DNA of 30,952 nt from the UHGV virus genome UHGV-0110025; one strand, given 5' to 3'. Position 1 is the stretch's first letter. The number at the start of each line of letters is the position of its first letter. The DNA comes from a virus. The translations under genes were made by a program, and so were the position numbers. This document shows, one piece after another, positions 50 through 30,902 of the stretch. Below the pieces are notes generated by a model that had not been told where the DNA came from, ran no database searches, and saw nothing but the letters and a program-made list of their open reading frames with translations.

Positions 50-1099
50 TTACGCAACCTCTGCCGCCACGTTGTCGCCAATACACAGTGACAACGGATT
101 CAAGGTGACAGCTTGTTCAAGATGGTCAGGAGCAAAGTGCGCATACTTCATTGTTTCACGAATATTTGCGTGACCGAGTATCTTCTGGAGTACAAGGATA
201 TTGCCGCCATTCATCATAAAATGCGCGCCAAAGGTGTGACGTAAAACGTGCGTTTTCTGCCCTTCAGTCAATTCAATGTTTGTGAGTTTGAGCATCTTCT
301 TAAAGTCCTGATAGCAGGGCTTGAACATTCTTCCCTGACGTTCGGACAACTCGTCATACAGCCATTTAGGAATCGGAACCGTGCGATTCTTCTTACCTTT
401 GGTTTTGGTGAAAGTCAGCTTGCAGGGGGAAAGTTGGGGACGTGTAAGTCTCTCAGCTTCTCCCCATCGTGCGCCAGTAGCCAGGCACACCTTAACAATC
501 ATAGTAAGATTTTCTTTGCCATATTGTTCACAGGCTCGGAACAGCTCCGGGAGCTGAGACAAAGTTAGCCAGGACATTTCTTTCTCAGCTTCTTTGAATA
601 CACGAATCCCGTCCAGTGGATTGGGTAAACTCCATTCACCTAATCGCCGCAGTTCATTGAACACAGCTTCGAGGTATTGCTGTTCGCGATTGACAGTTAT
701 AGGTTTGGCGATCCATTTCGCCGGGTCTTTGTGATAGCCGTTGTCTATTTCGCCACGTAATCGACGGTCACGGTAATGAGCCCAATCTTTAGCGGTAAGA
801 CGAGATGCAATAGGGTCGCCCAACCCGTTACATACAATTTGAAGCTTAGCTAACCGCGACTTACTGGCGACCAACGCCTGTCCATGTAAATTATGCCAAA
901 GCTGGATAATCTCACTTAAGCGTCGGCGGTCTTCTTTCTTGCCGAGCCACGGCTTATCTTCACTCTCGCTTTTCGTAAATGCTTCGAATGCCTCGGCCTC
1001 ACCTTTGGTATTGAATTGCCGACGTATTCGCCGCCCTTCTCGCCCATTAGGATAAAGCTCACATAACCATTTGCCATTTTTTTGCTTACTTATAGTCAT
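50..1099 (-). CDS. int: Tyrosine site-specific integrase (P2/186-type)
   Basis: ORF 50..1147; start taken at the second Met (ATG 1099, MTISKQKNGKW...). C-terminal catalytic region LRHTFGAHF...GHANIRETMKYAH carries the R/H-x-x-R-H...Y tyrosine-recombinase signature. Lies at the prophage edge downstream of cI as in P2. Confidence 0.9.
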   Translation of the reverse strand: MTISKQKNGKWLCELYPNGREGRRIRRQFNTKGEAEAFEAFTKSESEDKPWLGKKEDRRRLSEIIQLWHNLHGQALVASKSRLAKLQIVCNGLGDPIASRLTAKDWAHYRDRRLRGEIDNGYHKDPAKWIAKPITVNREQQYLEAVFNELRRLGEWSLPNPLDGIRVFKEAEKEMSWLTLSQLPELFRACEQYGKENLTMIVKVCLATGARWGEAERLTRPQLSPCKLTFTKTKGKKNRTVPIPKWLYDELSERQGRMFKPCYQDFKKMLKLTNIELTEGQKTHVLRHTFGAHFMMNGGNILVLQKILGHANIRETMKYAHFAPDHLEQAVTLNPLSLCIGDNVAAEVA

Positions 1100-1121
1100 A
1101 ATGTCACCGAGGCAACTCTTA

Positions 1122-1460
1122 TCATTCGCAAAGTGCTGTCGCAGCATCCATTACGGGATCCAAAGGAATTTTTACTCCTTCATAATCCGGGCTATCTTTC
1201 CAAACAGTATCAATATCGCTCCCCTCAAGCTTTCCAGACTTTACACCATCAATAGCAAACCCATTTAATGGGTATCGGTCATCTGTTGCTTTGTCGTACA
1301 CAAAGGCATATCTACCATTAACACAAGACACCGTAGCTTTTTCAAAAGTTAACGGCCAATCATCACCAAACTTAGCACCGTCTAAATCCTGTGTTTTTTC
1401 AGCGGCTGATGCACCGAAAGAAAGTGAAAGAAATAAAGCTAAAAAAAGCTTACGTTTCAT
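1122..1460 (-). CDS. Small exported protein with cleavable signal peptide (moron between cI and int)
   Basis: Start at ATG 1460 (MKRKLFLALFLSLSFGASA|AEK...), AAGGGA Shine-Dalgarno 4 nt upstream. N-terminal basic-hydrophobic-AxA signal peptide and two Cys in the mature part. Sits 8 nt after the cI stop and 22 nt before the int start, lower GC than neighbours. Confidence 0.6.
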   Translation of the reverse strand: MKRKLFLALFLSLSFGASAAEKTQDLDGAKFGDDWPLTFEKATVSCVNGRYAFVYDKATDDRYPLNGFAIDGVKSGKLEGSDIDTVWKDSPDYEGVKIPLDPVMDAATALCE

Positions 1461-1468
1461 AATGTCCC

Positions 1469-2305
1469 TTATACGTGTTTTTCCAATGTGAAAATTACAG
1501 CACCTACTGGTGTGATATCTGTAATGCTGCATTCAAACTCGGCAGACTTATTTGACAACCTGACTTTTCCGCCGGGAAGACGAATTACATCAAAAACATC
1601 AAGAGCGCCGTCAATATCAATTAACCAACGCCCATTACTTATGTTCGAAGCAGAACGGTTGACAAGCCAAGAGGCTCCAACACCTTCAACAAAAATCAAC
1701 TCCTCTGAGTCAGAGGGTATCATCGAGGGGTCTGGATGCCATTCGCCAGCGTCCTTAAGCTCACCCGCTTCAAGGCGAAATTTTTTAATTGAAAAACTTG
1801 ATGTGACCATTTCTCTGTTAGTTCGCATTTGCCCCTTGCCGGTTGCTAACCATTCCAGCGAAACACCAGTATCAAGGGCACAAGTAACAACTACATCGCC
1901 TGGGAAAAAATCACGCCGAACCCATGTGCTAATTGTTCCAGATGATATACCGAGTAAATCACCCAGCTCCTTTTGCATAGAAAAACCGTAAGCATCAAGG
2001 ATGCGTCTCAGAACAGGTTTACCACCTGAAGCCATGACCTTTTCATAAAGCTCTTTGCCCTTCAGGGTCGCACGTGAAGAGTTTGCTTTTGCAAGCTCCC
2101 CTGTCACTAACCATCCGATATCTGCGCCCGTTTCAATAGCACATTCAACAAATACATTGCCCGGAACGCTATCTCTGGCAAGCCAACTGCTTATGTTGTT
2201 GGCATAAATACCAAGTTTTTCGCCAAGTTCTTTTTGCGAGCTAAGTCCATAAGCCGAAAGGATTCTTTCGATAGCCGGAGCCGCACCATCTCCAAATTTA
2301 GCCAT
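1469..2305 (-). CDS. cI: CI-type immunity repressor (186 CI-like) with tandemly duplicated N-terminal HTH domain
   Basis: Two internal repeats: ...ERILSAYGLSSQKELGEKLGIYANNISSWLARDSVPGNVFVECAIETGADIGWLVTGE and ...RRILDAYGFSMQKELGDLLGISSGTISTWVRRDFFPGDVVVTCALDTGVSLEWLATGK, each matching the phage CI-repressor HTH pattern. Divergent from the early lytic operon, upstream of int. Confidence 0.8.
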   Translation of the reverse strand: MAKFGDGAAPAIERILSAYGLSSQKELGEKLGIYANNISSWLARDSVPGNVFVECAIETGADIGWLVTGELAKANSSRATLKGKELYEKVMASGGKPVLRRILDAYGFSMQKELGDLLGISSGTISTWVRRDFFPGDVVVTCALDTGVSLEWLATGKGQMRTNREMVTSSFSIKKFRLEAGELKDAGEWHPDPSMIPSDSEELIFVEGVGASWLVNRSASNISNGRWLIDIDGALDVFDVIRLPGGKVRLSNKSAEFECSITDITPVGAVIFTLEKHV

Positions 2306-4365: not shown

Positions 4366-6588
4366 TTGGCTGTTCAATTCGCTTATCCGTGGAATGCTCC
4401 ACGATCGGCTATAGCCAGCCCATACCTTACTTATAAGCAACAGCATCGCCGCGACCGTATGTTCGCGGCGATGCTGCATGCTAAAAAGGTGCTTTCTCTC
4501 CAGCCCGACTGCGTGCGGTTAGATGTTTATCGCACTGCGGCAGTGCTGGAGCAAAATCAGGGCATTCAACGAGCCAATGCCTTTTTGATCAGCTTCTGCA
4601 AAAAGGCATTGCCGCGTCTTGAATTGGTCGCAAAAAAATACGAATGCGCGGGTATCAACAGCAAGGTATCAACCTCTGTTTTTGGAAGTCATTTTGATAC
4701 CCAGCTTATGCAATATCTGGCGTCACGCATGGTTAATATGGTCGCCCGATATAACCGCCTCCCGGATATGTCGCGCGCTGATGTTGACCTGTTGGCCGCC
4801 GATATTGCTAATTTCATTCGTGGTGAACTTGCCAACATTAATGACCACGGATTCGGCGAGCTTAAAACGCTGTACACCTGGTATAATCGTGCTGGCTTTA
4901 TTTCCCTCCAGTTCAACGTTATCCCCCCCCATTGGGATCGGGTTGCAAAAAAATATGTTGGCGCGGATGAAATCGCACCGGCTATCGCCAAGATGTTTAA
5001 CGATGGGTGGTGGCGTGGTCGTTTGCGCCGGGTTGCAGCTACGTGGCGCGAACACCTGCAAATTGCAGTCGGCAACGTCAGCAAGAAAAAAAACACCTAT
5101 GCGAGTAAAAACTGCGTGACTGACTGGCGTGAACAAAAGCGCCGAACTCGTGAATTTCTCAAAGGTCTGGATCTCGAAGACGAAGACGGCAACCGTATCA
5201 GCCTGATTGAAAAATATGATGGCTCAGTTGCTAACCCTGCGATTCGCCGCTGTGAGCTCATGACTCGCATTCGTGGGTTTGAAAACATCTGTAATGAGCT
5301 CGGTTATGTCGGTGAGTTTTACACTCTGACCGCGCCGTCGAAATATCACGCCACGACTAAAGCCGGTTACCGTAACAGCAAATGGAGCGGTGCCTGCCCG
5401 GCTGACACGCAAAACTATCTAACTGATATCTGGGCGCGTATCCGTGCCAAACTGCATCGGGAAGATGTCCGTATTTTCGGTATTCGTGTCGCCGAGCCCC
5501 ATCACGACGGTACTCCACACTGGCACATGCTGATGTTCATGCTGCCGGAAGATGTTGAATATGTTCGCTCCATCGTCCGTAAATACGCGTGGAAAGAAGA
5601 CCGCCGCGAACTGAAAAGCGATAAGGCAAAAAAAGCACGTTTCCACGCCGAGTCCATTGACCCGGAGAAAGGCAGCGCAACCGGCTATGTTGCTAAATAC
5701 ATATCAAAAAATATCGACGGTTATGCTCTCGATGGTGAAACCGATAATGAAAGCGGTGAACTGCTGAAAGAGACAGCCCCCGCCGTTTCAGCATGGGCTT
5801 CGCGCTGGCACATCCGTCAGTTTCAGTTTATCGGTGGTGCGCCGGTGACGGTTTACCGTGAGTTGCGTCGCCTCGCTGATACCGAAACCGCGCACGGACT
5901 GAGCGTTGAGTTTGCCGCCGTCCATGATGCCGCCGACGCTGGTGACTGGGCTGGTTATGTTAATGCGCAGGGTGGACCGTTTGTCCGTCGCGATGATTTA
6001 CAGGTGCGCACACTGTATGAACCACGTACCGAGCTTAATCAGTACGGTGAGGAAACGGTATGTATTAAGGGGGTCTACGATTCCTCCATAGGTGCAGGTA
6101 GCCCGATTTTAACCCGGCTCACTCAGTGGAAGATTGTTCCGAAGCATGCTGTTGATTTGGCCGTTGACCTTCAGGACGGCAAAGCCGTCCCTCGGAGTTC
6201 TGTCAATAACTGTACGGGAAGTGAAAGCGATCCACCGATACTGGATTTAACAAAACCACAGAGTCGGCGCGAAAGACGAGAGCTGACCAACCGACTCAGG
6301 AAGCAAAAACCAGCAATACGGCGAAAATTCGTCCACGGAATGGATGAGCAAAACGCAGCTATAGCGAAAACTATCGACGAGATACATCTGACAACCAGCA
6401 TCACAATCAGCCGGGGCGAAGCCCTGCACCTGATGGCAGGTGGGAAAAGCTGTTTTGATGGCAAATGGCTAAGGGGAACATCCAAAGGGGAGATATTTTC
6501 CACTGTCCCATCGAACCAAGCTAAAGCTAGTAAAATCCTCAATCGTGTTGCAGCGTTGGTAGAAGCATCAAAGTTAATAGATGATTAA
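4366..6588 (+). CDS. A: Replication initiation endonuclease (P2 gpA family, rolling-circle HUH nickase)
   Basis: 740-aa ORF with a histidine-rich metal-binding region EPHHDGTPHWHMLMF and a downstream tyrosine motif GYVAKYISKN, typical of gpA initiators. Apparent TTG start at 4366 after a G-rich SD; an in-frame ATG lies at 4459. Confidence 0.9.
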   Translation: MAVQFAYPWNAPRSAIASPYLTYKQQHRRDRMFAAMLHAKKVLSLQPDCVRLDVYRTAAVLEQNQGIQRANAFLISFCKKALPRLELVAKKYECAGINSKVSTSVFGSHFDTQLMQYLASRMVNMVARYNRLPDMSRADVDLLAADIANFIRGELANINDHGFGELKTLYTWYNRAGFISLQFNVIPPHWDRVAKKYVGADEIAPAIAKMFNDGWWRGRLRRVAATWREHLQIAVGNVSKKKNTYASKNCVTDWREQKRRTREFLKGLDLEDEDGNRISLIEKYDGSVANPAIRRCELMTRIRGFENICNELGYVGEFYTLTAPSKYHATTKAGYRNSKWSGACPADTQNYLTDIWARIRAKLHREDVRIFGIRVAEPHHDGTPHWHMLMFMLPEDVEYVRSIVRKYAWKEDRRELKSDKAKKARFHAESIDPEKGSATGYVAKYISKNIDGYALDGETDNESGELLKETAPAVSAWASRWHIRQFQFIGGAPVTVYRELRRLADTETAHGLSVEFAAVHDAADAGDWAGYVNAQGGPFVRRDDLQVRTLYEPRTELNQYGEETVCIKGVYDSSIGAGSPILTRLTQWKIVPKHAVDLAVDLQDGKAVPRSSVNNCTGSESDPPILDLTKPQSRRERRELTNRLRKQKPAIRRKFVHGMDEQNAAIAKTIDEIHLTTSITISRGEALHLMAGGKSCFDGKWLRGTSKGEIFSTVPSNQAKASKILNRVAALVEASKLIDD

Positions 6589-6662
6589 TTTACATCCATA
6601 TCATGCACATACAATACCTGCATGATTCACTTTTTCTCTTCCCATCATTTGCTAATACGTGA

Positions 6663-6682
6663 TACTGTACAAATATACAGTT
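6663..6682. promoter_or_regulatory. LexA (SOS) box TACTGTACAAATATACAGTT
   Basis: CTGT-N8-ACAG with an AT-rich spacer, close to the E. coli LexA consensus TACTGTATATATATACAGTA. Lies about 20 bp upstream of the ATG at 6703, with a candidate -35 TTGCTA at 6649-6654. Confidence 0.7.
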
Positions 6683-6702
6683 ATCATATTGGGAGGGATT
6701 TC

Positions 6703-6888
6703 ATGGTTGGGGAACATTTCAGCCGAACGCAGCAAAAGTGGGCTTGTGTGCAATTCATTGCCGAGATATCTCTGGTTGCAAACTGCAAGCCAGCAGACTT
6801 AAAGCTTGCGCTTACTCTCATTGCTGATCTGGCAAACAGCGAAAACAACGAAGAACCAGAAAATGAAGTCTTTTATAAGGCTGAATAG
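6703..6888 (+). CDS. Small SOS-controlled protein, candidate Tum-like antirepressor
   Basis: 61-aa ORF with SD GGGAGGGA (6691-6698), immediately downstream of the LexA box. It is downstream of gene A, where 186 carries the LexA-regulated tum gene. The protein has an acidic C-terminus; sequence identity to Tum is not verified. Confidence 0.45.
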   Translation: MVGEHFSRTQQKWACVQFIAEISLVANCKPADLKLALTLIADLANSENNEEPENEVFYKAE

Positions 6889-6891
6889 GTT

Positions 6892-7026
6892 ATGAAAATT
6901 AATCTCACATTGGATAAGAAACAAAAACTAGGCCGACCGGTTATTGATGCCTTTCAATGCGAATTGACCAAGAGGACACTGTCTATTTTTCCGTCAACAT
7001 GTGGTGCCGTCAAGAGAGCACTATGA
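6892..7026 (+). CDS. Small basic hypothetical ORF (44 aa)
   Basis: MKINLTLDKKQKLGRPVIDAFQCELTKRTLSIFPSTCGAVKRAL. Starts 3 nt after the stop of the Tum-like ORF, in the same frame. Below the 60-aa cutoff of the supplied track; translated by hand. Confidence 0.3.
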   Translation: MKINLTLDKKQKLGRPVIDAFQCELTKRTLSIFPSTCGAVKRAL

Positions 7027-7148
7027 GTGGTGCTGAGTTGATGGAGTTTGATATAGATTCAGATCGCGAGGCGCTTGATGGTATTCTCCAAGAAATCTGG
7101 GAAGACGAGCAGTTGGCGGTAGTTAATGACAGAATGTGCAGACCATAA
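7023..7148 (+). CDS. Small acidic hypothetical ORF (41 aa)
   Basis: MSGAELMEFDIDSDREALDGILQEIWEDEQLAVVNDRMCRP. Its ATG overlaps the TGA of the preceding 44-aa ORF (ATGA), suggesting translational coupling. Confidence 0.35.
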   Translation: MSGAELMEFDIDSDREALDGILQEIWEDEQLAVVNDRMCRP

Positions 7149-7193
7149 CCCTATGTCTAGTTGCACGGAGGTTAGAAAAAATGCTGTCCGAAT

Positions 7194-7214
7194 TAGCCCT
7201 CTCTCAGAGGGCTA
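7194..7214 (+). terminator. Perfect 9-bp-stem hairpin TAGCCCTCT-CTC-AGAGGGCTA
   Basis: Inverted repeat read from the sequence, downstream of the small-ORF cluster and upstream of the 7347 operon. A T-run (tgctgttttt) follows only after about 15 nt, so intrinsic-terminator function is uncertain. Confidence 0.35.
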
Positions 7215-7271
7215 TGAATTAAAAATGCTGTTTTTGATATGTTAACCTCTTAACAGTTTCATCTTTAAATC

Positions 7272-7299
7272 TTGTAAAGTAAAACTTTGCGTTTATGAT
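7272..7299 (+). promoter_or_regulatory. Candidate sigma70 promoter for the 7347-8947 operon
   Basis: -35 TTGTAA (7272-7277), 16-nt spacer, -10 TATGAT (7294-7299), in an AT-rich intergenic region. AAGGAG Shine-Dalgarno at 7333-7338 precedes ATG 7347. Confidence 0.35.
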
Positions 7300-7346
7300 T
7301 GATAAAAATTAAAAAAGTATGAAGAGGCTGTAAAGGAGTTTTATCA

Positions 7347-7862
7347 ATGCCTGGATTCCAAAATGCACAGCAAAATCAATTTGATGATCATGCTCCAGAA
7401 ATGGAGATAAACTTAATCGTAGATGTTGCTGAGCAGCCCGTAGCCTTTACCTATCAATATAGTGAGCAAATTAGCCACCTTGCACCGCAATGTCCGCCAG
7501 CAGAAGCGATTGAATGTGACAAAGAATGCTGGCGCTTCACTCTCAATCCGATAACGGACAGTTGCTTTTGGCCTCCAAAAAGAAGGGTTCCTGAGAGGGT
7601 TGCCTCAGACAGTCAGCAGGAGTGCTCTATGTGGGCGTTGTCTATGTATGAATCAGAGCGACAAGCTGTAGTCGCTTATTCTGGGCTTTCTAAGTCAGTG
7701 AGAAATATTAAGAAAACAATTGGAGATCACCTTGCAAGAGGCACGGTAGCTTGTGGTGATGGTAGATGTATGCCTCCAAATAGAAAAGGCCATTTTGACT
7801 TTCATCCATATTTAGATACTGAGTTCCCTGATGGCTTTCAGGTAATAAGAGCATTACCATGA
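7347..7862 (+). CDS. Hypothetical Cys-rich protein, gene 1 of an accessory two-gene operon
   Basis: 171-aa ORF with strong SD, AT-rich codon usage unlike the phage backbone, several Cys pairs (CPPAEAIECDKEC ... CGDGRC). No motif I recognise. Stop overlaps the next start (ATGA at 7859-7862). Confidence 0.6.
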   Translation: MPGFQNAQQNQFDDHAPEMEINLIVDVAEQPVAFTYQYSEQISHLAPQCPPAEAIECDKECWRFTLNPITDSCFWPPKRRVPERVASDSQQECSMWALSMYESERQAVVAYSGLSKSVRNIKKTIGDHLARGTVACGDGRCMPPNRKGHFDFHPYLDTEFPDGFQVIRALP

Positions 7863-8947
7863 TAAAATTAGATGCTAAAAGAATCACTGCACCGGAGGTC
7901 GGAGATTACTCGTGGTATTCTGACTTGGTGTATTTTGATGGACCACTGATTTGTTTATTTCGAGGAAGTGGCTATAAGGATGCTCTTTATGTTTGGCTTG
8001 ATAATTCAACCAGAGCCAACCGCTGGTGTTTAATACCTGTATCAAGGTCAACTTTAGATTCCTATCTTAATCAAAGAATGAGTCTAAGAGAAATCATACA
8101 ATCAAACGAATATGTTTATATTTGCAATCACTTTGCAGAAACAGGACGAAAAAATTATAGCCGTCTGAGCGTAGATGATTTCCCTGAGGAATATATGCCT
8201 GATGCTGACTCATATTTATATGAAGAAATATGCACCGATGACGCACTATTGTTAAAGCAAGAACGCACATCTAGCTATATGCTAGGACTGGACAACCAGT
8301 TGTTTATAAATGATTTATCAGAAATTCCAAAAATTTTCGAACAATTGTATTCTTTCCACTATGGACTTGCCCACTTGGGCAGAATTTCCATTAGAAATAC
8401 CATGCTGCGATTGATGGGTAGTTGGACTGGTGGATTCTCAGCAGTAAATATTTTCACTGGTTTAAAGAATGTCATTCCTGTCCTGCACCGCCCAGAAGTT
8501 AGCTCACTTCAATATAACTCCCCCGGACATATTGAATTGAACTTGCTTCCTGACTTGGCGCAGAGCGTTCAGGATGTATCTGTTCGTGTTGAAAATGAAT
8601 TTATTTATGACCGTTTAGAGAAAATCTATAAAAACAATTACACATACTTTAAAGATAAAGATCTATCAGGTTTTGATGAGGGTGGAGGAATTGAGTTAAG
8701 GAACATCGACTCTGAAACCACAGAAAATCTTCGTAAGCGTGTTAGAATTTTCTTTAGGTGTTTAGGTTGGAAAACCTATCAAGCGCAGTTTGATATGATC
8801 GGTGCCCATCCCTTGCAGCAGTTACGCGCAGTTATGGCGTATTACAGACGCCTGAAAACATTACGAGAATATATTGTGGCAGATAAATTATTCATTGGTC
8901 ATTCGCGAGTGCCGGTAGAGCAAATTACTGTGAATACTGAAAATTAG
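7859..8947 (+). CDS. Hypothetical protein, gene 2 of an accessory two-gene operon
   Basis: 362-aa ORF translationally coupled to the upstream gene, AT-rich. No P-loop, HExxH, HIT or other motif recognised. Located between gene A and cos. Confidence 0.65.
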   Translation: MIKLDAKRITAPEVGDYSWYSDLVYFDGPLICLFRGSGYKDALYVWLDNSTRANRWCLIPVSRSTLDSYLNQRMSLREIIQSNEYVYICNHFAETGRKNYSRLSVDDFPEEYMPDADSYLYEEICTDDALLLKQERTSSYMLGLDNQLFINDLSEIPKIFEQLYSFHYGLAHLGRISIRNTMLRLMGSWTGGFSAVNIFTGLKNVIPVLHRPEVSSLQYNSPGHIELNLLPDLAQSVQDVSVRVENEFIYDRLEKIYKNNYTYFKDKDLSGFDEGGGIELRNIDSETTENLRKRVRIFFRCLGWKTYQAQFDMIGAHPLQQLRAVMAYYRRLKTLREYIVADKLFIGHSRVPVEQITVNTEN

Positions 8948-9073
8948 CTTTCTGCATGAGGATGCGTGAATCTGCATTATTTATTAATTCAACCCATAGA
9001 TACTGTAGGACGCAATAGGCATGGGCTTGAGACCAAAATGCAACTGCATTAAAACCGCCCCATTAAGCGGGTA

Positions 9074-9092
9074 GGCGTGGCGGGGAAAGCAT
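9074..9092. other. cos: cos site (19-nt cohesive end) GGCGTGGCGGGGAAAGCAT
   Basis: Differs at two positions from the P2 cohesive end as I recall it (GGCGAGGCGGGGAAAGCAC). Lies in a GC-rich non-coding stretch between the A-side accessory genes and portal gene Q, where cos sits in an integrated P2-type prophage. Confidence 0.7.
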
Positions 9093-9311
9093 TGCGCGCC
9101 AGCAGTGATGCGTAATAATAAAAATTATCCTCTGAGCGCGTCGTGATGGCGCTGTCGTGGTCGCTGCTGGTTCGTTGGTGGTCGGGTGTGTTCGTGCGCG
9201 TGAGACGCATCTGATGCGTGATGGTGGTGTGCATGGAAAAGCCACCAGGAGCAGCGGCTTTACAGGAGTGGCAGGATTCAAACTGCTAATTATGTTTCTA
9301 CTATGATTAAA

Positions 9312-10316
9312 CTAATTTACATGTATGTAGAGTTCACCGTCGCCAGACCAATCGGGACACTCTAAAACAAGCCCAAACTGCTTGAATATTTCATCAATGA
9401 TTATTGTTATCTCCCGAAAATCACCAAAACCTGTAATGTGCTGGTCATTAAACTTCCCATAAAGATTCTGAAAAGCAATGCCTAATTCTGATAATTGATA
9501 TCTTATCTTTGAGTTGGATAGTGTAAGGGATAGCTTTGGATCGTATTCTTTAATATTGATGTTTAGAGAATGGACATAACCCATCGCATAAGCATAAGAG
9601 TTGATGATTAGCCTGATACGTTTTTTTACTTCGAGATACATGTCATTCAGAGAAATATTACCGTACTTATAACCCCAGATGAGTTTTTCAATCTCGTCAG
9701 ATACTTCATTTACAACAGTGTCAAGATTCTCTAAAAATAAATCAATAGTTTCTTGAGGGGCAGACCCCGAAGACATGTAATTAGCGAGATATTCAGACCA
9801 TGCACGCGTGGCTGAGATAAGAAGCGCGCTACCATACTCGTTGACTGTAAAATTTTGGGCTAAGCATGTTAGTAAGTTTTTTTCATGTACGTGCACTAAT
9901 TCATGGTGAATGCGATGGATGACTGCGAGGTATCCTTCTTCTTTCAGTTTTAAGAAGCTACCATCATTGAAAAGCTCAACAAAAAAATCAATCGATAGCA
10001 CAAGGGTATATTCTTCACATAGCCCATCATTGCCAATTTTTGTTACTAACTGCCCGACGGCTGCGCCCTGTTTGCTATTGGTAAATGAACTAGGGGATTT
10101 GTGTTGGTAAGAGGATGTTACCTTTTGAAGAGCTTCACTGAAGTTATAGGAAACAATCACGCATTTTAATTTGGAGATATCAAGATTGAGATTTTTTGTT
10201 AAAGCTCGGATAGCTTCTAGTGTGAAATTACCGATATTATTTGCTTCTTGCTCAGTAGCGAAACCTTCGAGGGTTATTTTAAAATCAGTTTCCAAAATAT
10301 TAATCTCCGCGCCCAT
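9312..10316 (-). CDS. Hypothetical protein with HExxH zinc-metallopeptidase-like motif
   Basis: 334-aa ORF, AT-rich, containing IHRIHHELVHVHEKN (HELVH = HExxH, with a second HE just downstream). Inserted between cos and Q. No strong SD at ATG 10316. Confidence 0.65.
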   Translation of the reverse strand: MGAEINILETDFKITLEGFATEQEANNIGNFTLEAIRALTKNLNLDISKLKCVIVSYNFSEALQKVTSSYQHKSPSSFTNSKQGAAVGQLVTKIGNDGLCEEYTLVLSIDFFVELFNDGSFLKLKEEGYLAVIHRIHHELVHVHEKNLLTCLAQNFTVNEYGSALLISATRAWSEYLANYMSSGSAPQETIDLFLENLDTVVNEVSDEIEKLIWGYKYGNISLNDMYLEVKKRIRLIINSYAYAMGYVHSLNINIKEYDPKLSLTLSNSKIRYQLSELGIAFQNLYGKFNDQHITGFGDFREITIIIDEIFKQFGLVLECPDWSGDGELYIHVN

Positions 10317-10393
10317 TGTTTTGATATTCGATGCACTATAGCTTTCGCAGATTGCATCTTCAATAATGAGCGCAGAGATTGTGGCGGCCTAAG

Positions 10394-11440
10394 TTATTCT
10401 GGGTTGTCGAGGGTGTACTCTTTGAACCTGATGACCTCCATACCGAGCCAGTCGTTTACCTCCCTGAACCTATCCTGCAGGGGTGACAGCTCATTACGCA
10501 CAAATACCTTTGCCACCTTCTCAACGTCACCGAGTGAACCGATATTCTCGGGCTTGCCGCCCATGAGCTGGAACGGTACGCGGTGCGCGTCCATCAGATC
10601 GGCGGCACTGGCCTTCTTGATGTTGAAAAAGTCATCCTTTGTGGCGACCTCGCTCAGTGGCACGATTTTGATGCCGTCCGGTTTTCCGCCGGGAGCGTAG
10701 AAAAACAGGTTCTTAAAGTTGCCGAGCCCTTTTGAGTTGCGCATCGCCTCGCGCAGCGATTCGACGTCGGTCGCGCTCTGCGCCGGGTCAGTCACATACA
10801 TGATGTAACCCGCGTGCGCGCCGTTCTGATAATACTTGCGGCGGAACAGCGTCGCGGATTCATTCAGCCAGGCGGAATTTAGCGCGCTGAGATATTCGGG
10901 CAGGCCGTAAATCTCCTGATTAATGTCGGGCTCCAGCAGGTGAAACACGGTATCAGGCGCGAACTCGTGCGGCTGGGTGAAGTTTTCCACAAACCAGAAA
11001 ATCGAATCGTCGACTCCGCGTCGGGTGTATTTGGCTGGCGAGGCCAGCAGTTTGATTAACTGGCCGGTGACGCTGTGGCGCTGCTCAAGAAAGGCGTTAC
11101 CGAACACCAGATAATCGAGCGCAAAGCGGCTGAAATCCTGACGGGATAACAACGGGTGCGGAATGTAGGTGCTCGCGAGCACGTTACGCTTAACATAAAT
11201 TGGCGAGCTGTGATGCACGGCAGAGCGCAGGCTCTTTGCCAGCCCTGAGAAGCTGACCGGCGGCTCGTACCATTTGCCGTTACTGATGCACTCGACGTAA
11301 TCCAGAATGTCGCGCTTATCGAGTACCGGCACCGGCTCGCCGAAGGTGAACGCTGTCGTTTTTGGCGGTGCGCTGGCGGTCAGTTGTTGTGGTTTGCTGG
11401 CCTTTTGTGCGTTGGCTTTACGGGATTTTTGTTTACCCAT
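10394..11440 (-). CDS. Q: Portal protein (P2 gpQ family)
   Basis: 348-aa ORF on the minus strand immediately upstream of terminase P, the P2 Q-P arrangement next to cos. N-terminal basic region and overall length fit gpQ. Confidence 0.9.
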   Translation of the reverse strand: MGKQKSRKANAQKASKPQQLTASAPPKTTAFTFGEPVPVLDKRDILDYVECISNGKWYEPPVSFSGLAKSLRSAVHHSSPIYVKRNVLASTYIPHPLLSRQDFSRFALDYLVFGNAFLEQRHSVTGQLIKLLASPAKYTRRGVDDSIFWFVENFTQPHEFAPDTVFHLLEPDINQEIYGLPEYLSALNSAWLNESATLFRRKYYQNGAHAGYIMYVTDPAQSATDVESLREAMRNSKGLGNFKNLFFYAPGGKPDGIKIVPLSEVATKDDFFNIKKASAADLMDAHRVPFQLMGGKPENIGSLGDVEKVAKVFVRNELSPLQDRFREVNDWLGMEVIRFKEYTLDNPE

Positions 11441-11441
11441 T

Positions 11442-13211
11442 TTAGTTGAACTCCAGAATAGATTTAGGCTGCATGCCGCTACCGGCAGAAAGCGGTTCGT
11501 TTAACAGGGCGTGCATGGTCGCCCATGCGATATCGGCGTGGCTGGCTTCCTCGGTGCGGCTGGCCTCATAGGTGGCGCTGCGCCCGCTGCTGGTCATGGT
11601 TTTGCGGATGGACATAAACGACTGCGTGACGTCGGTTGCTCCGGCGTCGTACTCCAGACAGCCACGGCGAATGGTGTCTTTCGCCTTGAGTACCATTGCG
11701 GTTTTCATTTCAGGTGTGTAACGGATGCCGCGTGCCGCCGGGTAAAATGAGCGCACCAGCTGGAACACGCCGAGACCGAGGCCGGTTGCGTCAATGCCGA
11801 TGTATTCGACGTTGTATTTCTCGGTCAGCTTGCGGATGCCCTCTGCCTGTGCTGCAAAATCCATGCCCTTCCACTGGTGGCGCTCCAGCATGCGGAACTT
11901 GCCACCAGAGACCACCGGCGGCGCGAGCACGACGCACCCGGCACTGTCGCCGGTGTGTGACGGGTCGTAGCCAATCCAGACAGGACGAGAGCCGAACGGA
12001 TGGTCGGCGAACGGGGCAAAGTCCTCCCATTCCTCCATCACATCGACCATGCAGCGCTGCAGCTCCTCGAACGGGAATACCGACGCTTTATCGTCGACAA
12101 ACTCGCACATAAACAGGTTCTTAAAGTCCTCATCACTGTTTTCGCGTTTGAGCTGGTCGAGGTCGAACAGGGTGCAGCCACCCGCAAGGGCGTCCTCAAT
12201 GGTGACAATCTGCCGCCACTGGCCATCGTCGCAGAGCTGGCCACCGGCGAGCGCGCTGTGACTGATGTCGATTTCGATGCGGTCGGCAATCCGGCTGCGC
12301 CCCTTGTTGAACAGCTCGCCAGACCAGAAGGGGTAAGCGCCGTGCGCCAGCGTGGAAGGTGTCGAAAAATAGGTCGAGCGCAGGTGCTTTTGCGAGGCCA
12401 TGCCCGAGGCGACTTTGCGCAGTTTCTGAAAATTCGGGATCCAGAATATTTCATCGACATACAGATCGCCGTTATGGCTCTGCGCGGTGTTGGAATTGGT
12501 ACCGAGAAAAATCAGTTTTGCGCCGTTGTTACCGATGACAATCGGGTCGCCAGTCAGGTCAACGTCGACCAGTCGCGCAAACTGGATGATGTATTCGCGG
12601 AACACGTAAGCCTGCGTTTTACTGGCTGATAAAAATATCTGGTTATGGCCGGTTTTGAGTGCGCGCAGCAGTGCCTCGCGGGAGAAATAGAATGTCGCGC
12701 CAATCTGGCGGGATTTGAGAATGTCACGAATACGGTGCTCCAGTCCTGCGCGGTACCACTGCAACTGGTACTCGAAAGACTGGTCGAAAAATAATTCCTC
12801 TAGTTTATCGATAGCCTCGTCGCTGAAAAAATTCTTTTTCGGCTTTTTGCGCTCCCCTTTGTTGCGGTTGGCGACGTTGGGGTTAAGGTCGGCTTCGTTG
12901 CCGGTCTGGCTGTAGCGGTTGACTCGCGCCAACCGTTCAATCTGCCGTCCGAGCAGGTCAATCTCTTTGAAATCACCCCCTGTCTTTTGCGGCTTGGCGA
13001 TGAGCTGAATCAGCCTAGCCTCAAGGCTGCTTTCAACGCGGGAAATCGGCGCGATGCCGTCCCAGCCGTCGCGCTGCTTCCAGCTCTGCACGGTCGGGCG
13101 CTTGACCTGCAGCATTTCGGCAATCTGTGGCACGGAAAAACCCTGCCAGTAAAGCAGCGATGCCTGCCGTCGCGGGTCATGCAACAAGGTTGTATCGGTG
13201 GAAATGGTCAT
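11442..13211 (-). CDS. P: Terminase large (ATPase) subunit (P2 gpP family)
   Basis: 589-aa ORF; stop is 1 nt from the Q start. Divergent from O-N-M-L as in P2. Confidence 0.9.
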   Translation of the reverse strand: MTISTDTTLLHDPRRQASLLYWQGFSVPQIAEMLQVKRPTVQSWKQRDGWDGIAPISRVESSLEARLIQLIAKPQKTGGDFKEIDLLGRQIERLARVNRYSQTGNEADLNPNVANRNKGERKKPKKNFFSDEAIDKLEELFFDQSFEYQLQWYRAGLEHRIRDILKSRQIGATFYFSREALLRALKTGHNQIFLSASKTQAYVFREYIIQFARLVDVDLTGDPIVIGNNGAKLIFLGTNSNTAQSHNGDLYVDEIFWIPNFQKLRKVASGMASQKHLRSTYFSTPSTLAHGAYPFWSGELFNKGRSRIADRIEIDISHSALAGGQLCDDGQWRQIVTIEDALAGGCTLFDLDQLKRENSDEDFKNLFMCEFVDDKASVFPFEELQRCMVDVMEEWEDFAPFADHPFGSRPVWIGYDPSHTGDSAGCVVLAPPVVSGGKFRMLERHQWKGMDFAAQAEGIRKLTEKYNVEYIGIDATGLGLGVFQLVRSFYPAARGIRYTPEMKTAMVLKAKDTIRRGCLEYDAGATDVTQSFMSIRKTMTSSGRSATYEASRTEEASHADIAWATMHALLNEPLSAGSGMQPKSILEFN

Positions 13212-14307: not shown

Positions 14308-15375
14308 ATGCGCCCGGAAACCCGTTTTAAGTTCAATGCCTATCTGACCCGCGTCGCTGAGCTGAACGGCATCAGCACTGATGACGTCAGTAAAAAATTC
14401 ACCGTCGAGCCGTCCGTCACGCAAACGCTGATGAACAAAGTGCAGGAGTCATCCGCGTTTCTGCAGACGATTAACATTCTGCCGGTTGCAGAAATGAAGG
14501 GTGAGAAAATCGGCGTCGGTGTGACCGGTACTATCGCCAGCACGACCGACACCTCGGGCGATGATGAGCGTAAGACCGCAGACTTCACCGCGCTTGAGTC
14601 CAACAAGTACGAGTGCGACCAGATTAACTTTGACTTCCATCTGAAATATAAAACCCTCGACCTGTGGGCGCGTTTTCAGGACTTTCAGCGCCGCATCCGT
14701 GACGCCATTGTTAAGCGTCAGGCGCTCGATTTCATCATGGCCGGTTTTAACGGTACCACCCGCGCCGCCACCTCTGACCGCACCAAAAATCCGATGCTGC
14801 AGGATGTAGCCGTCGGCTGGCTGCAGAAATACCGCAACGAAGCCCCGACGCGTGTGATGAGCAATATCACCGATGCTGACGGTAAGGTCGTTTCGGCAGT
14901 GATTCGCGTCGGTAAAAACGGCGACTATGAGAACCTCGACGCGCTGGTGATGGATGCTACCAACAACCTGATTGACGAGGTTTATCAGGATGACCCGAAA
15001 CTCGTTGCCATCGTTGGCCGTAAGCTGCTGGCCGACAAATATTTCCCGCTGGTGAACAAGCCGCAAGAAAACAGCGAAGCGCTCGCGGCAGATATCATCA
15101 TCAGCCAGAAGCGAATCGGCAACCTGCCTGCTGTGCGTGTGCCGTACTTCCCGGCGAATGCCGTGTTAGTGACAACGCTGGAAAACCTCTCTATCTATTT
15201 CATGGATGAGAGCCACCGCCGCAGCATTGATGAAAACCCGAAAAAAGACCGCGTGGAAAACTACGAGTCAATGAATATCGACTATGTGGTCGAGGCGTAT
15301 GCCGCCGGGTGTCTGCTGGAAAACATCACCCTGGGCGATTTCACCGCACCTGCAGCACCGGAAAGCGGAGAGTAA
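14308..15375 (+). CDS. N: Major capsid protein (P2 gpN family)
   Basis: 355-aa ORF following O; length, position and high GC backbone composition fit gpN. Confidence 0.9.
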   Translation: MRPETRFKFNAYLTRVAELNGISTDDVSKKFTVEPSVTQTLMNKVQESSAFLQTINILPVAEMKGEKIGVGVTGTIASTTDTSGDDERKTADFTALESNKYECDQINFDFHLKYKTLDLWARFQDFQRRIRDAIVKRQALDFIMAGFNGTTRAATSDRTKNPMLQDVAVGWLQKYRNEAPTRVMSNITDADGKVVSAVIRVGKNGDYENLDALVMDATNNLIDEVYQDDPKLVAIVGRKLLADKYFPLVNKPQENSEALAADIIISQKRIGNLPAVRVPYFPANAVLVTTLENLSIYFMDESHRRSIDENPKKDRVENYESMNIDYVVEAYAAGCLLENITLGDFTAPAAPESGE

Positions 15376-15379
15376 GCCC

Positions 15380-16129
15380 ATGACGAGCCCCGCACAGCGT
15401 CACATGATGCGGGTCTCGGCCTCTCAAGCCGCGCAGCGGGAACAAGCCCCGCTGCGCCATGCAACCGCCTACGAGCAGATGCTGGTAAAGCTGGCCGATG
15501 ACCGCCGCACGTTGAAAACCATCCGTTCAAACGAACTGAAAGCCGCGAAAAAGCGTGAGCTGCTGCCGTTCTATGCGCCGTGGGTCGCCGGTGTGCTGGC
15601 TGATGGCCGTGGTGCGCAGGATGACATTCTGATGACAGTCATGCTGTGGCGTCTCGATGCCGGTGATATCGCTGGCGCGCTGGAAATTGCGCCATACGCG
15701 CTGAAGTACGGCCTCACCTCTGACTATCGCCGCACGACACCTTACATGCTGGTTGAGGAGGTGGCGCTTGCCGCGCTGCGCCTGCGCGATGCCGGTGAGC
15801 CTGTCGACCTCGCATTACTGCTGACCACCCTTAGCCTGACCGACGGCGCTGACGTTCCCGATATGGTGCGCGCTCGACTGCATAAGGTGACCGGTCTAAC
15901 CCTGCGCGATGCCGGTCAGAGCGCCGAAGCACTGGCACAGTTTCAGCGCGCGATGCAGCTCGACCGCAATGCCGGTGTGCGCAAAGAGATTGAGCGACTG
16001 GAGCGGGCATTGAAGCCTAAGCCCGATGCCGCGCCCCGTAAAACGACTAAACCGCGCACGCGCAAACCTGCCACCAAACCGGCGGCAAAGCGCGGGCGTC
16101 CACCAAAGGCGGTAAAAACCGCCGGTTAA
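15380..16129 (+). CDS. M: Terminase small (endonuclease) subunit (P2 gpM family)
   Basis: Start placed at ATG 15380 (MTSPAQRHMMR...), 4 nt after the N stop with GGAG upstream; the six-frame ORF extends upstream into N. Basic Pro/Lys/Arg-rich C-terminus. Confidence 0.85.
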   Translation: MTSPAQRHMMRVSASQAAQREQAPLRHATAYEQMLVKLADDRRTLKTIRSNELKAAKKRELLPFYAPWVAGVLADGRGAQDDILMTVMLWRLDAGDIAGALEIAPYALKYGLTSDYRRTTPYMLVEEVALAALRLRDAGEPVDLALLLTTLSLTDGADVPDMVRARLHKVTGLTLRDAGQSAEALAQFQRAMQLDRNAGVRKEIERLERALKPKPDAAPRKTTKPRTRKPATKPAAKRGRPPKAVKTAG

Positions 16130-29250: not shown

Positions 29251-29736
29251 ATGATGCTTGCTCTCGGAATGTTTGTGTTTGAACTTCGCACCCTGCCTTA
29301 CCAGTCGATGCAGCATTCGAAAGATTATCGCTGGATGTCCAATGACCGGGTGGGTAAACCACCTGCCTATCAGTTTCTTGGCGAGGGGGAAACCTCTATA
29401 CAGCTTGCTGGTACGCTATACCCCGCTATCACTGGCGGTTGGATCTCACTAAAGGCTGTAGAGGTGATGGCCAATGAAGGCAGAGCGTGGCCGTTGATAG
29501 AGGGAACCGGAAATATCCTCGGGATGTATATCGTCGATAAAGTATCGACTACACGCACCGAGTTTTTCAGTGATGGTGCGGCCAGAAAGATTGATTTCAC
29601 GCTTTCGCTAAAACGGGTTGATGAATCGCTGACAGAGATGTTTGGTGACCTGAATAAACAGGCCAGTGAGCTTCTCGGCTCTGCCGGTAATTTGACAGAT
29701 AAACTGCAGGGTATGCCCGGAGGTTTCACTGCATGA
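29251..29736 (+). CDS. U: Tail protein U (P2 gpU family)
   Basis: 161-aa ORF following T, in the conserved position. Confidence 0.85.
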   Translation: MMLALGMFVFELRTLPYQSMQHSKDYRWMSNDRVGKPPAYQFLGEGETSIQLAGTLYPAITGGWISLKAVEVMANEGRAWPLIEGTGNILGMYIVDKVSTTRTEFFSDGAARKIDFTLSLKRVDESLTEMFGDLNKQASELLGSAGNLTDKLQGMPGGFTA

Positions 29737-30902
29737 TAACGGGGATGGCAATTGACGCCGGTGCCAGCCTTGCACCGGCATTTATGTTGACGCTGAACAG
29801 CCAGGACATTACCAGCAATTTTAGTGACCGATTGATTTCTCTCACCATGACCGATAACCGGGGTTTTGAGGCTGACCAGCTCGATATTGAGCTTGATGAT
29901 ACCGACGGGAAAGTTGAGTTACCCCTGCGCGGGGCAGTGCTGACGCTGTGGCTTGGCTGGCAGGGCTCGGCGTTGCTGAATAAGGGGGATTTTACGGTCG
30001 ATGAGATTGAGCACCGGGGAGCGCCTGACACCCTGACCATCCGGGCGCGCAGCGCGGACTTTCGCGGCACGCTAAATTCCAGGCGTGAAGAGTCATGGCA
30101 TGACACCACCATCGGAGAACTGGTCAGCACCATCGCAAAACGCAATAAACTGACGGCCAGTGTCGCTGATTCACTGAAAAAAATCCCGGTACCGCATATC
30201 GACCAGTCGCAGGAGTCCGACGCGGTGTTTCTGACCCGGCTAGCTGACCGAAACGGAGCTGCGGTGTCAGTGAAAGCGGGGAAATTGCTGTTTCTGAAAG
30301 CCGGTAGTGCGATGACGGCCAGCGGCAGAGCCATCCCGCAAATGACGCTGACCCGTAGCAATGGTGACCGTCATCAATTTGCTATTGCCGACCGTGGGGC
30401 TTATACCGGCGTAACGGCAAAATGGTTGCACACTAAAGACCCGAAGCCGCAAAAGCAAAAAGTGACGCTGAAACGCCAGCCAAAAGAGAAACACCTACGC
30501 GCACTGGAGCACCCGAAAGCAAAGCCTGTCAGCAAAAAGACAAAGGCCAAAAAAGAGCAGGAGGCTCGCGAGGGTGAGTATATGGCCGGTGAAGCCGATA
30601 ACGTGCTGGCGCTGACAACGGTCTACGCATCAAAGGCGCAGGCGATGCGTGCCGCTCAGGCTAAGTGGGATAAACTGCAGCGAGGCGTTGCGGAGTTTTC
30701 AATCACACTGGCGCTAGGGCGAGCGGATTTATTTCCTGAGACGCCTGTACGTGTGTCGGGCTTTAAGCGCGTAATAGACGAACAGGTATGGTTAATCAGT
30801 AAAGTAACTCACATTCTGAATAATAGTGGCTTCACGACGGGGTTAGAGCTTGAGGTTAAGCTATCTGATATAGAGTACAGCTCAGAGGAAAGCGAAATAT
30901 AA
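29733..30902 (+). CDS. D: Tail protein D (P2 gpD family)
   Basis: 389-aa ORF overlapping the U stop, last gene of the tail operon within the window. Confidence 0.85.
   Translation: MITGMAIDAGASLAPAFMLTLNSQDITSNFSDRLISLTMTDNRGFEADQLDIELDDTDGKVELPLRGAVLTLWLGWQGSALLNKGDFTVDEIEHRGAPDTLTIRARSADFRGTLNSRREESWHDTTIGELVSTIAKRNKLTASVADSLKKIPVPHIDQSQESDAVFLTRLADRNGAAVSVKAGKLLFLKAGSAMTASGRAIPQMTLTRSNGDRHQFAIADRGAYTGVTAKWLHTKDPKPQKQKVTLKRQPKEKHLRALEHPKAKPVSKKTKAKKEQEAREGEYMAGEADNVLALTTVYASKAQAMRAAQAKWDKLQRGVAEFSITLALGRADLFPETPVRVSGFKRVIDEQVWLISKVTHILNNSGFTTGLELEVKLSDIEYSSEESEI

Follow-up and report, generated by a model that had tools for sequence, protein, structure and literature searches.

The interval at about 8950-9265 of the analysed DNA most probably (roughly 0.9) represents the module for cos packaging in what looks like a complete 186-like prophage, carrying cargo on both sides within the gpA-cos-portal hotspot. 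The window, which is the whole 30,952-bp stretch analysed here, appears by its gene content to comprise essentially a whole 186-like (Peduoviridae, Eganvirus-type) prophage. Its genes are arranged in the order int-CI-CII-...-A-cos-Q-P-O-N-M-L-...-T-D, as in a whole 186-like phage, from the integrase (50-1147, minus strand) through the replication protein A (gpA, 4366-6588) to D (29733-30902), the last of the listed genes, which follows L, the tail genes and the tape measure gene. The cos is flanked by the gene A side on the left and by the portal gene on the right, and the genes of a cognate terminase of the gpP/gpM type are close by. In agreement with the original prediction, which described a GC-rich stretch between two AT-rich islands, the GC content was 54% at 9050-9300 versus 40% at 7347-8947 and 37% at 9312-10316, that of the whole window being 51%, and accessory genes were found on both sides of the cos, namely PD-T4-10AB on the left and a gene for a 334-aa protein on the right. 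These AT-rich islands are horizontally acquired cargo.

Results

The cohesive-end sequence and its cognate terminase

The cohesive end was located at 9074..9092 (plus strand) as the 19-nt sequence GGCGTGGCGGGGAAAGCAT, the equivalent of cosN, by its match to the annotated cos of phages 186 and PSP3. It is identical at 19/19 positions to the 186 cos (U32222, bases 1-19) and at 19/19 positions to the PSP3 cos, which the PSP3 record describes as 'identical to 186 cos'. The cosL of P2 (AF063097, bases 1-19) reads GGCGAGGCGGGGAAAGCAC and differs from GGCGTGGCGGGGAAAGCAT at positions 5 and 19, so the 17/19 match to the P2 cohesive end given in the original prediction is correct, and the alignment to the P2 and 186 cos regions that had been proposed as a check returned 17/19 and 19/19, respectively. 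Because of the complete identity to both 186 and PSP3, a genuine P2-family (Peduoviridae) cos of the 186-type variant, not of the P2 type, is supported; of the earlier designation as a 'P2-type cos', the P2-family cos in its expected place holds, but the type is that of 186, in the 19-mer as in the terminase.

GGCGTGGCGGGGAAAGCAT was the sole match in the 30,952-bp window with up to three mismatches allowed, and 0 matches were obtained in 100 dinucleotide-preserving shuffles (chance expectation 0). When the cos region was compared with phage records by blastn, the alignments of the cos-linearised genomes of 186, PSP3, EtG and SEN1 all began at query base 125, which corresponds to window position 9074. 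U32222 annotates the 186 cos as 'top strand cut at 5' end and bottom strand cut at 3' end', and positions transferred from this annotation predict staggered nicks between 9073 and 9074 on the top strand and between 9092 and 9093 on the bottom strand, which would leave 5' overhangs.

The packaging genes are likewise closest to those of 186. The portal gene (10394..11440, minus strand), a homologue of 186 W and P2 Q, matches Pfam Phage_portal and TIGR01540 and is 94% identical to 186 W. It is followed by the large terminase gene (TerL; 11442..13211, minus strand), a homologue of 186 Orf12 and P2 gpP and the presumed cos-cutting enzyme, with Terminase_6N, Terminase_6C and Terminase_5 domains, which shows 99% identity to 186 and 89% to P2. 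The small terminase (TerS; 15380..16129, plus strand; Pfam Phage_term_smal), a homologue of 186 R and P2 gpM and the presumed cos-recognition subunit, shares 92% identity with 186 R in an alignment that sets in at residue 33 of the ORF beginning at 15284. Scaffold O and capsid N lie between TerL and TerS, and on the other side a DinI-like gene and then the left cargo lie between gpA and the cos.

A scan of IMG/VR with GGCGNGGCGGGGAAAGCAY yielded at least 120 loci, 116 of them with enough flank for analysis, and among the matches listed these 116 carried 83 P2-type, 31 186-type and 2 hybrid 19-mers. The cos variant could be compared with TerL at 61 IMG/VR loci among the matches listed, where 38 were P2 with P2-like, 19 were 186 with 186-like, 2 were ambiguous and 2 had the hybrid 19-mer, that is, consistent pairing in 57/59 non-hybrid loci among the matches listed. 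By these sequence comparisons the window carries a normal cognate cos-terminase pair, a pairing that may reflect specificity or mere linkage. The two hybrids (L040 and L065) carry GGCGAGGCGGGGAAAGCAT, which agrees with P2 at position 5 and with 186 at position 19; one of their TerL proteins is 186-like and the other is slightly nearer P2.

Several further features of the early region were observed. A DUF2511 protein of 136 aa (Pfam E 2.4e-16) is encoded at 1122-1532 (minus strand) between the integrase and the CI repressor genes. The longest ORF of the CI repressor (1469-2305, minus strand) has 278 aa, and the CI helix-turn-helix domain was matched in it in two stretches; 186 CI is much shorter, at about 190 aa. 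Translation may in fact begin at an internal start codon, or the protein may carry an N-terminal extension relative to 186 CI. The position of the DUF2511 gene fits a minor int-side accessory hotspot in P2-like prophages (PMC13586616). Downstream of gene A, an 88-aa ORF (phrog_1993) and the DinI-like ORF (6622-7148) stand in place of 186 tum/orf97; the homologue of the 88-aa ORF in 613R3 is annotated 'UV induction of prophage', which bears on SOS inducibility.

The conserved core, the right arm and the terminator

To delimit the module, nine circularised junctions were anchored ungapped at the nick, those of the window, 613R3, the E. coli 222 prophage, 186, Klebsiella RCIP0057, Yersinia MDG94-186, P2, phage 899 and the satellite P4. 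Comparison with 186, P2 and P4 defined a conserved 55-bp core (9045..9099, plus strand, -29 to +26), which runs from TGCATTAAAACCG to AAGCGGG, through the 19-mer, to TGCGCGC. Its identity was 51/55 to 186, 49/55 to P2 and 47/55 to P4, while P2 and P4 shared 52/55 with each other, and over 108 unique IMG/VR flanks among the matches listed it was conserved at 80-100%. The segment 9045-9099 corresponds to the '55 bp' of P2/P4 homology, as far as this is quoted from Ziermann & Calendar 1990 in PMC9594776.

To the right of the core, a G/T-rich non-coding arm (9100..9237, plus strand) is conserved in phage alignments of the P2/186 type only, with 83-88% identity among 186-like phages, and is still recognisable by alignment in P2; P4 showed no homology to the right of +26 and thus has no right arm, and an Rfam search of the right arm region returned no family at E<=1. 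The arm ends at a predicted rho-independent terminator hairpin (9238..9261, minus strand), identified by a terminator scan and by alignment with the annotated tW of 186, to which, as to P2 tQ, it is homologous. This hairpin has a calculated energy of -11.5 kcal/mol (RNA) and is followed by a U tract, the value for 186 tW being -15.1; in the present arrangement it follows the 334-aa cargo gene.

The stretch had been called non-coding, and this description appears to hold, although two small ORFs (9049-9234 and 9063-9281, both minus strand) span the cos. That the GC-rich stretch encodes a small protein from one of these and is not purely a cis-acting site is very improbable: a 61-aa ORF has been called in ON470592 and some NCBI contigs, and an ORF of 61-66 aa occurs at the equivalent position in 186 and the Klebsiella phage, but neither cos-spanning ORF matched a PHROG profile, the ORF is missing from P2, phage 899 and the Yersinia phage, comparison with 186 shows single-base indels that disrupt its frame, no feature is annotated at this position in the curated records of 186 and P2, and the predicted peptide is of low complexity and rich in T, R and P. 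The public 61-aa 'hypothetical protein' across the cos (ON470592.1, 34244-34429; contigs L015, L016 and L018, 4191-4376) is probably an annotation artefact, and the stretch is best read as a non-coding cos region.

TGCAT repeats at fixed distances to the left of the nick

To the left of the nick the conserved element is an array of short repeats on the plus strand, TGCAT at 8953-8957 (-121), TGCGT, with one mismatch, at 8963-8967 (-111), TGCAT at 8973-8977 (-101) and a fourth TGCAT at 9045-9049 (-29). The positions 8953-8977 together with 9045 are the sole place in the window with at least three TGCAT per 105 bp. The distances of the repeats to the nick (about -124, -111, -101 and -29) were constant, without gaps, in 9/9 reference junctions including that of P4, the first repeat of the window being offset by 3 bp relative to 186 and its middle repeat being TGCGT, not TGCAT. 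This register is fixed despite the fact that the spacer from -95 to -40 is unrelated among P2, P4, 186 and the window.

The same pattern was found in the public loci. Among the matches listed, the 108 unique IMG/VR flanks carried TGCAT at -29 in 104 cases and at -101/-100 in 88, and, again among the matches listed, at -111/-110 in 80 and at -124/-121/-120 in 73, and the background of TGCAT in the spacers was 0.0007 per position. Clustering of the spacers (-95 to -38) of the matches listed gave 52 mutually unrelated clusters, most of which keep the TGCAT register. Among the listed flanks without a phage-type right arm, P4-like satellites included, 53/59 carried TGCAT at -101. Cargo genes on the left stop outside this array: no plus-strand ORF of at least 100 aa on the left side ended nearer to the nick than -104, the 95th percentile being -127 (IMG/VR, among the matches listed), and the PD-T4-10B stop codon TAG (8945-8947), whose last base lies at about -126, 5 bp before the first TGCAT, is among the closest approaches to the nick in the public loci listed.

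These repeats are proposed to be a cis-acting packaging element, in the simplest case a set of putative small-terminase sites phased at about one helical turn and at a fixed distance from the nick, and the functional cos module probably spans about -125 to +26, beyond the 19-mer or the 55-bp core alone. A wider proposal, which we put forward tentatively and at somewhat less than even odds, is that the array is a cosB-like small-terminase recognition array of the whole P2/186/P4 guild, copied by satellites and forming a cargo-proof boundary, and that, separately, the 334-aa HExxH protein described below is a new single-gene defence or counter-defence effector. Under this proposal satellites would copy the array so as to be packaged, and the array would set the left boundary of the cos module and limit where cargo can lie; if it is such a boundary, this would be why left cassettes of the hotspot keep a distance of about 126 bp or more from the nick. 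A full-text literature search found no paper naming TGCAT here, but this search did not cover the 1990 P2/P4 cos deletion analysis, and no novelty is claimed.

The left cargo is a PD-T4-10 system

Between the DinI-like gene and the cos, two genes gave full-length HMM matches to the components of PD-T4-10, the putative antitoxin PD-T4-10A (7347..7862, plus strand; PADLOC PDLC04023, E 6.5e-69) and the toxin PD-T4-10B (7859..8947, plus strand; PADLOC PDLC04024, E 3.3e-169). They overlap by 4 nt (ATGA at 7859-7862), as is typical of this system. Experiments on the reference system established PD-T4-10 as a toxin-antitoxin pair that protects against T-even phages by abortive infection (Abi), with B as the toxin and A as the antitoxin (PMC9519451). 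By these matches the left cargo is a PD-T4-10 toxin-antitoxin system, whose protective function is known from the reference system only. At the DNA level the allele of the window shares only about 76% identity with its counterparts in complete E. coli genomes, where the annotation reads DUF6575 plus a hypothetical protein. At least 24 draft or metagenomic contigs, however, have an identical copy in the same phage setting.

The right cargo resembles a metallopeptidase gene and lies within the portal terminator

The right cargo consists of a gene for a 334-aa protein (9312..10316, minus strand), a predicted gluzincin-like zinc metallopeptidase. The HExxH motif (H138-E-x-x-H142) is invariant, as are E145 and E175, both candidate third metal ligands, and a zincin-type catalytic-domain fold was predicted. 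The protein had no match in Pfam, NCBIfam or PADLOC and matched only phrog_11743, whose function is unassigned in PHROG, and its sequence did not place it in a curated peptidase family. Thus, in motif and in its modelled, gluzincin-like fold, it looks like a metallopeptidase. A promoter-like site at 10363-10335 (minus strand) ahead of the gene was identified by consensus match only.

The edges of this cassette were recognised by alignment with 186 and the Klebsiella phage, both of which lack the insertion. A duplicated half-arm of the old portal terminator, TGGCGGCCTAAG (10382..10393, plus strand), abuts the portal stop codon and marks the right edge of a cassette of about 9267-10381, and the full terminator hairpin survives on the cos side (9238-9266). 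These alignments place the insertion of the right cassette inside the ancestral portal terminator. Because the whole hairpin remains on the cos side while the half-arm TGGCGGCCTAAG stands at the portal stop, the sequence suggests that cassettes are exchanged via recombination at terminator-like sequences. The right-side cargo is a minority configuration: the portal stop lies 179-198 bp from the nick in 78/92 IMG/VR loci among the matches listed, and the remaining 14/92 listed carry 393-3227 bp inserted, one of them with the 1320 bp of the window.

At least 24 public contigs show the arrangement gpA - PD-T4-10AB - cos - 334 aa - portal, with a 100% identical cos module in 6/6 independent public contigs read with the same cargo. 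Other cargo occupies the equivalent place in 186, P2, E. coli 222 and 613R3. Among the complete E. coli genomes in the collection, none carried at least 80% of 6500-11500.

Discussion

Packaging and mobility of the cargo

P2-family phages package their DNA cos-to-cos from monomer circles, and P2 and 186 proceed from excision through rolling-circle replication from an A-nicked origin to terminase nicking 19 bp apart and packaging through the portal. From the homologies described above we infer cleavage between 9073 and 9074 and between 9092 and 9093, and an inducible prophage. After induction the prophage would excise and replicate by rolling circle from the A-nicked origin, the terminase (TerS 15380-16129, TerL 11442-13211) would recognise the cos on the circular genome and nick it 19 bp apart, and the nicked DNA would be packaged through the portal. 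The left end of the virion DNA would then lie at 9074 and be followed by the right arm, the 334-aa gene, the portal gene and onward, and the right end, at 9073/9092, would carry gene A, the DinI-like gene, PD-T4-10AB and the TGCAT array; upon injection, annealing of the 5' overhangs would restore the junction. Given an inducible prophage, it can soundly be concluded that the virion DNA would carry PD-T4-10 at its right terminus and the 334-aa gene at its left terminus. The cargo would travel with the phage because it lies inside the excised circle; the position of the cos only makes it terminal.

The site might instead be a perfectly kept but unused cos in a defective (cryptic) prophage, in which case the cargo would not be mobilised. 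The window does not reach the att sites, the host flanks or the outermost ends of the prophage, the collection offers no well-studied lysogen since no complete E. coli genome in it contains the cos region with both cargoes at the length given above, and the cos-adjacent terminator is weaker than in 186. We nevertheless consider a cryptic prophage improbable, as all packaging, head, replication and lysogeny genes examined are full-length ORFs that match their families strongly and are 92-99% identical to 186, the prophage of about 31 kb suits a 186/P2 capsid (186 30.6 kb, P2 33.6 kb), and the identity of module and cargo in many independent contigs fits recent spread. The same core and TGCAT array also occur in P4-like satellites, which would allow the cos to belong to such a satellite integrated beside phage genes, but this is hardly credible: phage genes surround the site, gene A on one side and the portal and terminase genes on the other, and it has the phage-specific right arm and tW-type terminator, both missing in P4, and none of the satellite genes sid, psu, delta and alpha primase was found adjacent to it. 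The preferred reading is therefore that of a working cos of an apparently complete 186-like prophage.

Significance

Homology to 186 would fix the physical ends of the virion DNA of this prophage, and a validated anti-T-even defence and an uncharacterised metallopeptidase-like gene would become its terminal genes, beside the proposed recombinogenic ends of the P2/P4 hotspot. In practice, the spurious ORF across the cos can be removed from annotations, and the design of 186/P2/P4 cosmids should take account of the conserved module of about -125 to +26, not of the 19-mer or the 55-bp core alone. The cos site itself offers no new biology; modest leads come from the TGCAT array and the HExxH gene.

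Comparison with known systems

The finding of the cos is correct and already known in kind, because the cos has the 186 sequence and the A-Q interval is a published hotspot; what this analysis adds is refinement, namely the 186 type, the probable module of about -125 to +26, the right cargo in the portal terminator and the metallopeptidase-like gene. That defence genes accumulate in the cos-proximal interval between gpA and gpQ of P2-like phages has been published (Rousset et al. 2022, PMC9122126; Vassallo et al. 2022, PMC9519451; PMC13586616). Several of the new systems of PMC9519451 were reported from this very place in P2-like prophages, with the replication endonuclease on one side and the portal gene on the other, and PD-T4-10 too was reported from P2-like prophages. 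That cohesive ends promote recombination there was already a speculation of the hotspot authors (PMC9122126, PMC9519451, PMC13586616). The window resembles this hotspot in its AT-rich accessory genes between A and Q, adjoining the cos and including the validated defence PD-T4-10; however, the hotspot studies treat A-Q as one locus, whereas the cargo of the window is split by the cos into a left and a right cassette.

Phage 186 shares with the window the identical 19-nt end, 51/55 positions of the core, a right arm of about 86% identity through tW and the same position relative to the portal and terminase genes. The portal stop of 186 lies at +196, directly after the terminator, whereas that of the window lies at +1320, with the cassette of about 1.1 kb and its 334-aa gene in between; the left cargo is tum/orf97 in 186 but PD-T4-10 in the window, and the spacers from -95 to -40 are unrelated. 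P2 and P4 (AF063097, X51522) resemble the window in the 19-nt staggered-cut architecture, the 55-bp core and the distances of TGCAT to the nick, but differ by two substitutions in the 19-mer, A5T and C19T, whose distribution over the public loci among the matches listed follows the lineage of the terminase; P4 is without the right arm, and the left cargo of P2 is old and tin. The cos of lambda (cosN, cosB, cosQ) offers an analogy only. It too has a staggered nick and short repeats at a fixed distance on one side, and the R sites of lambda bind the small terminase, but it shows no sequence similarity to the cos of the window, the terminase of P2-family phages differs in acting on monomer circles, and the lambda overhang is 12 nt, compared with 19 nt here.
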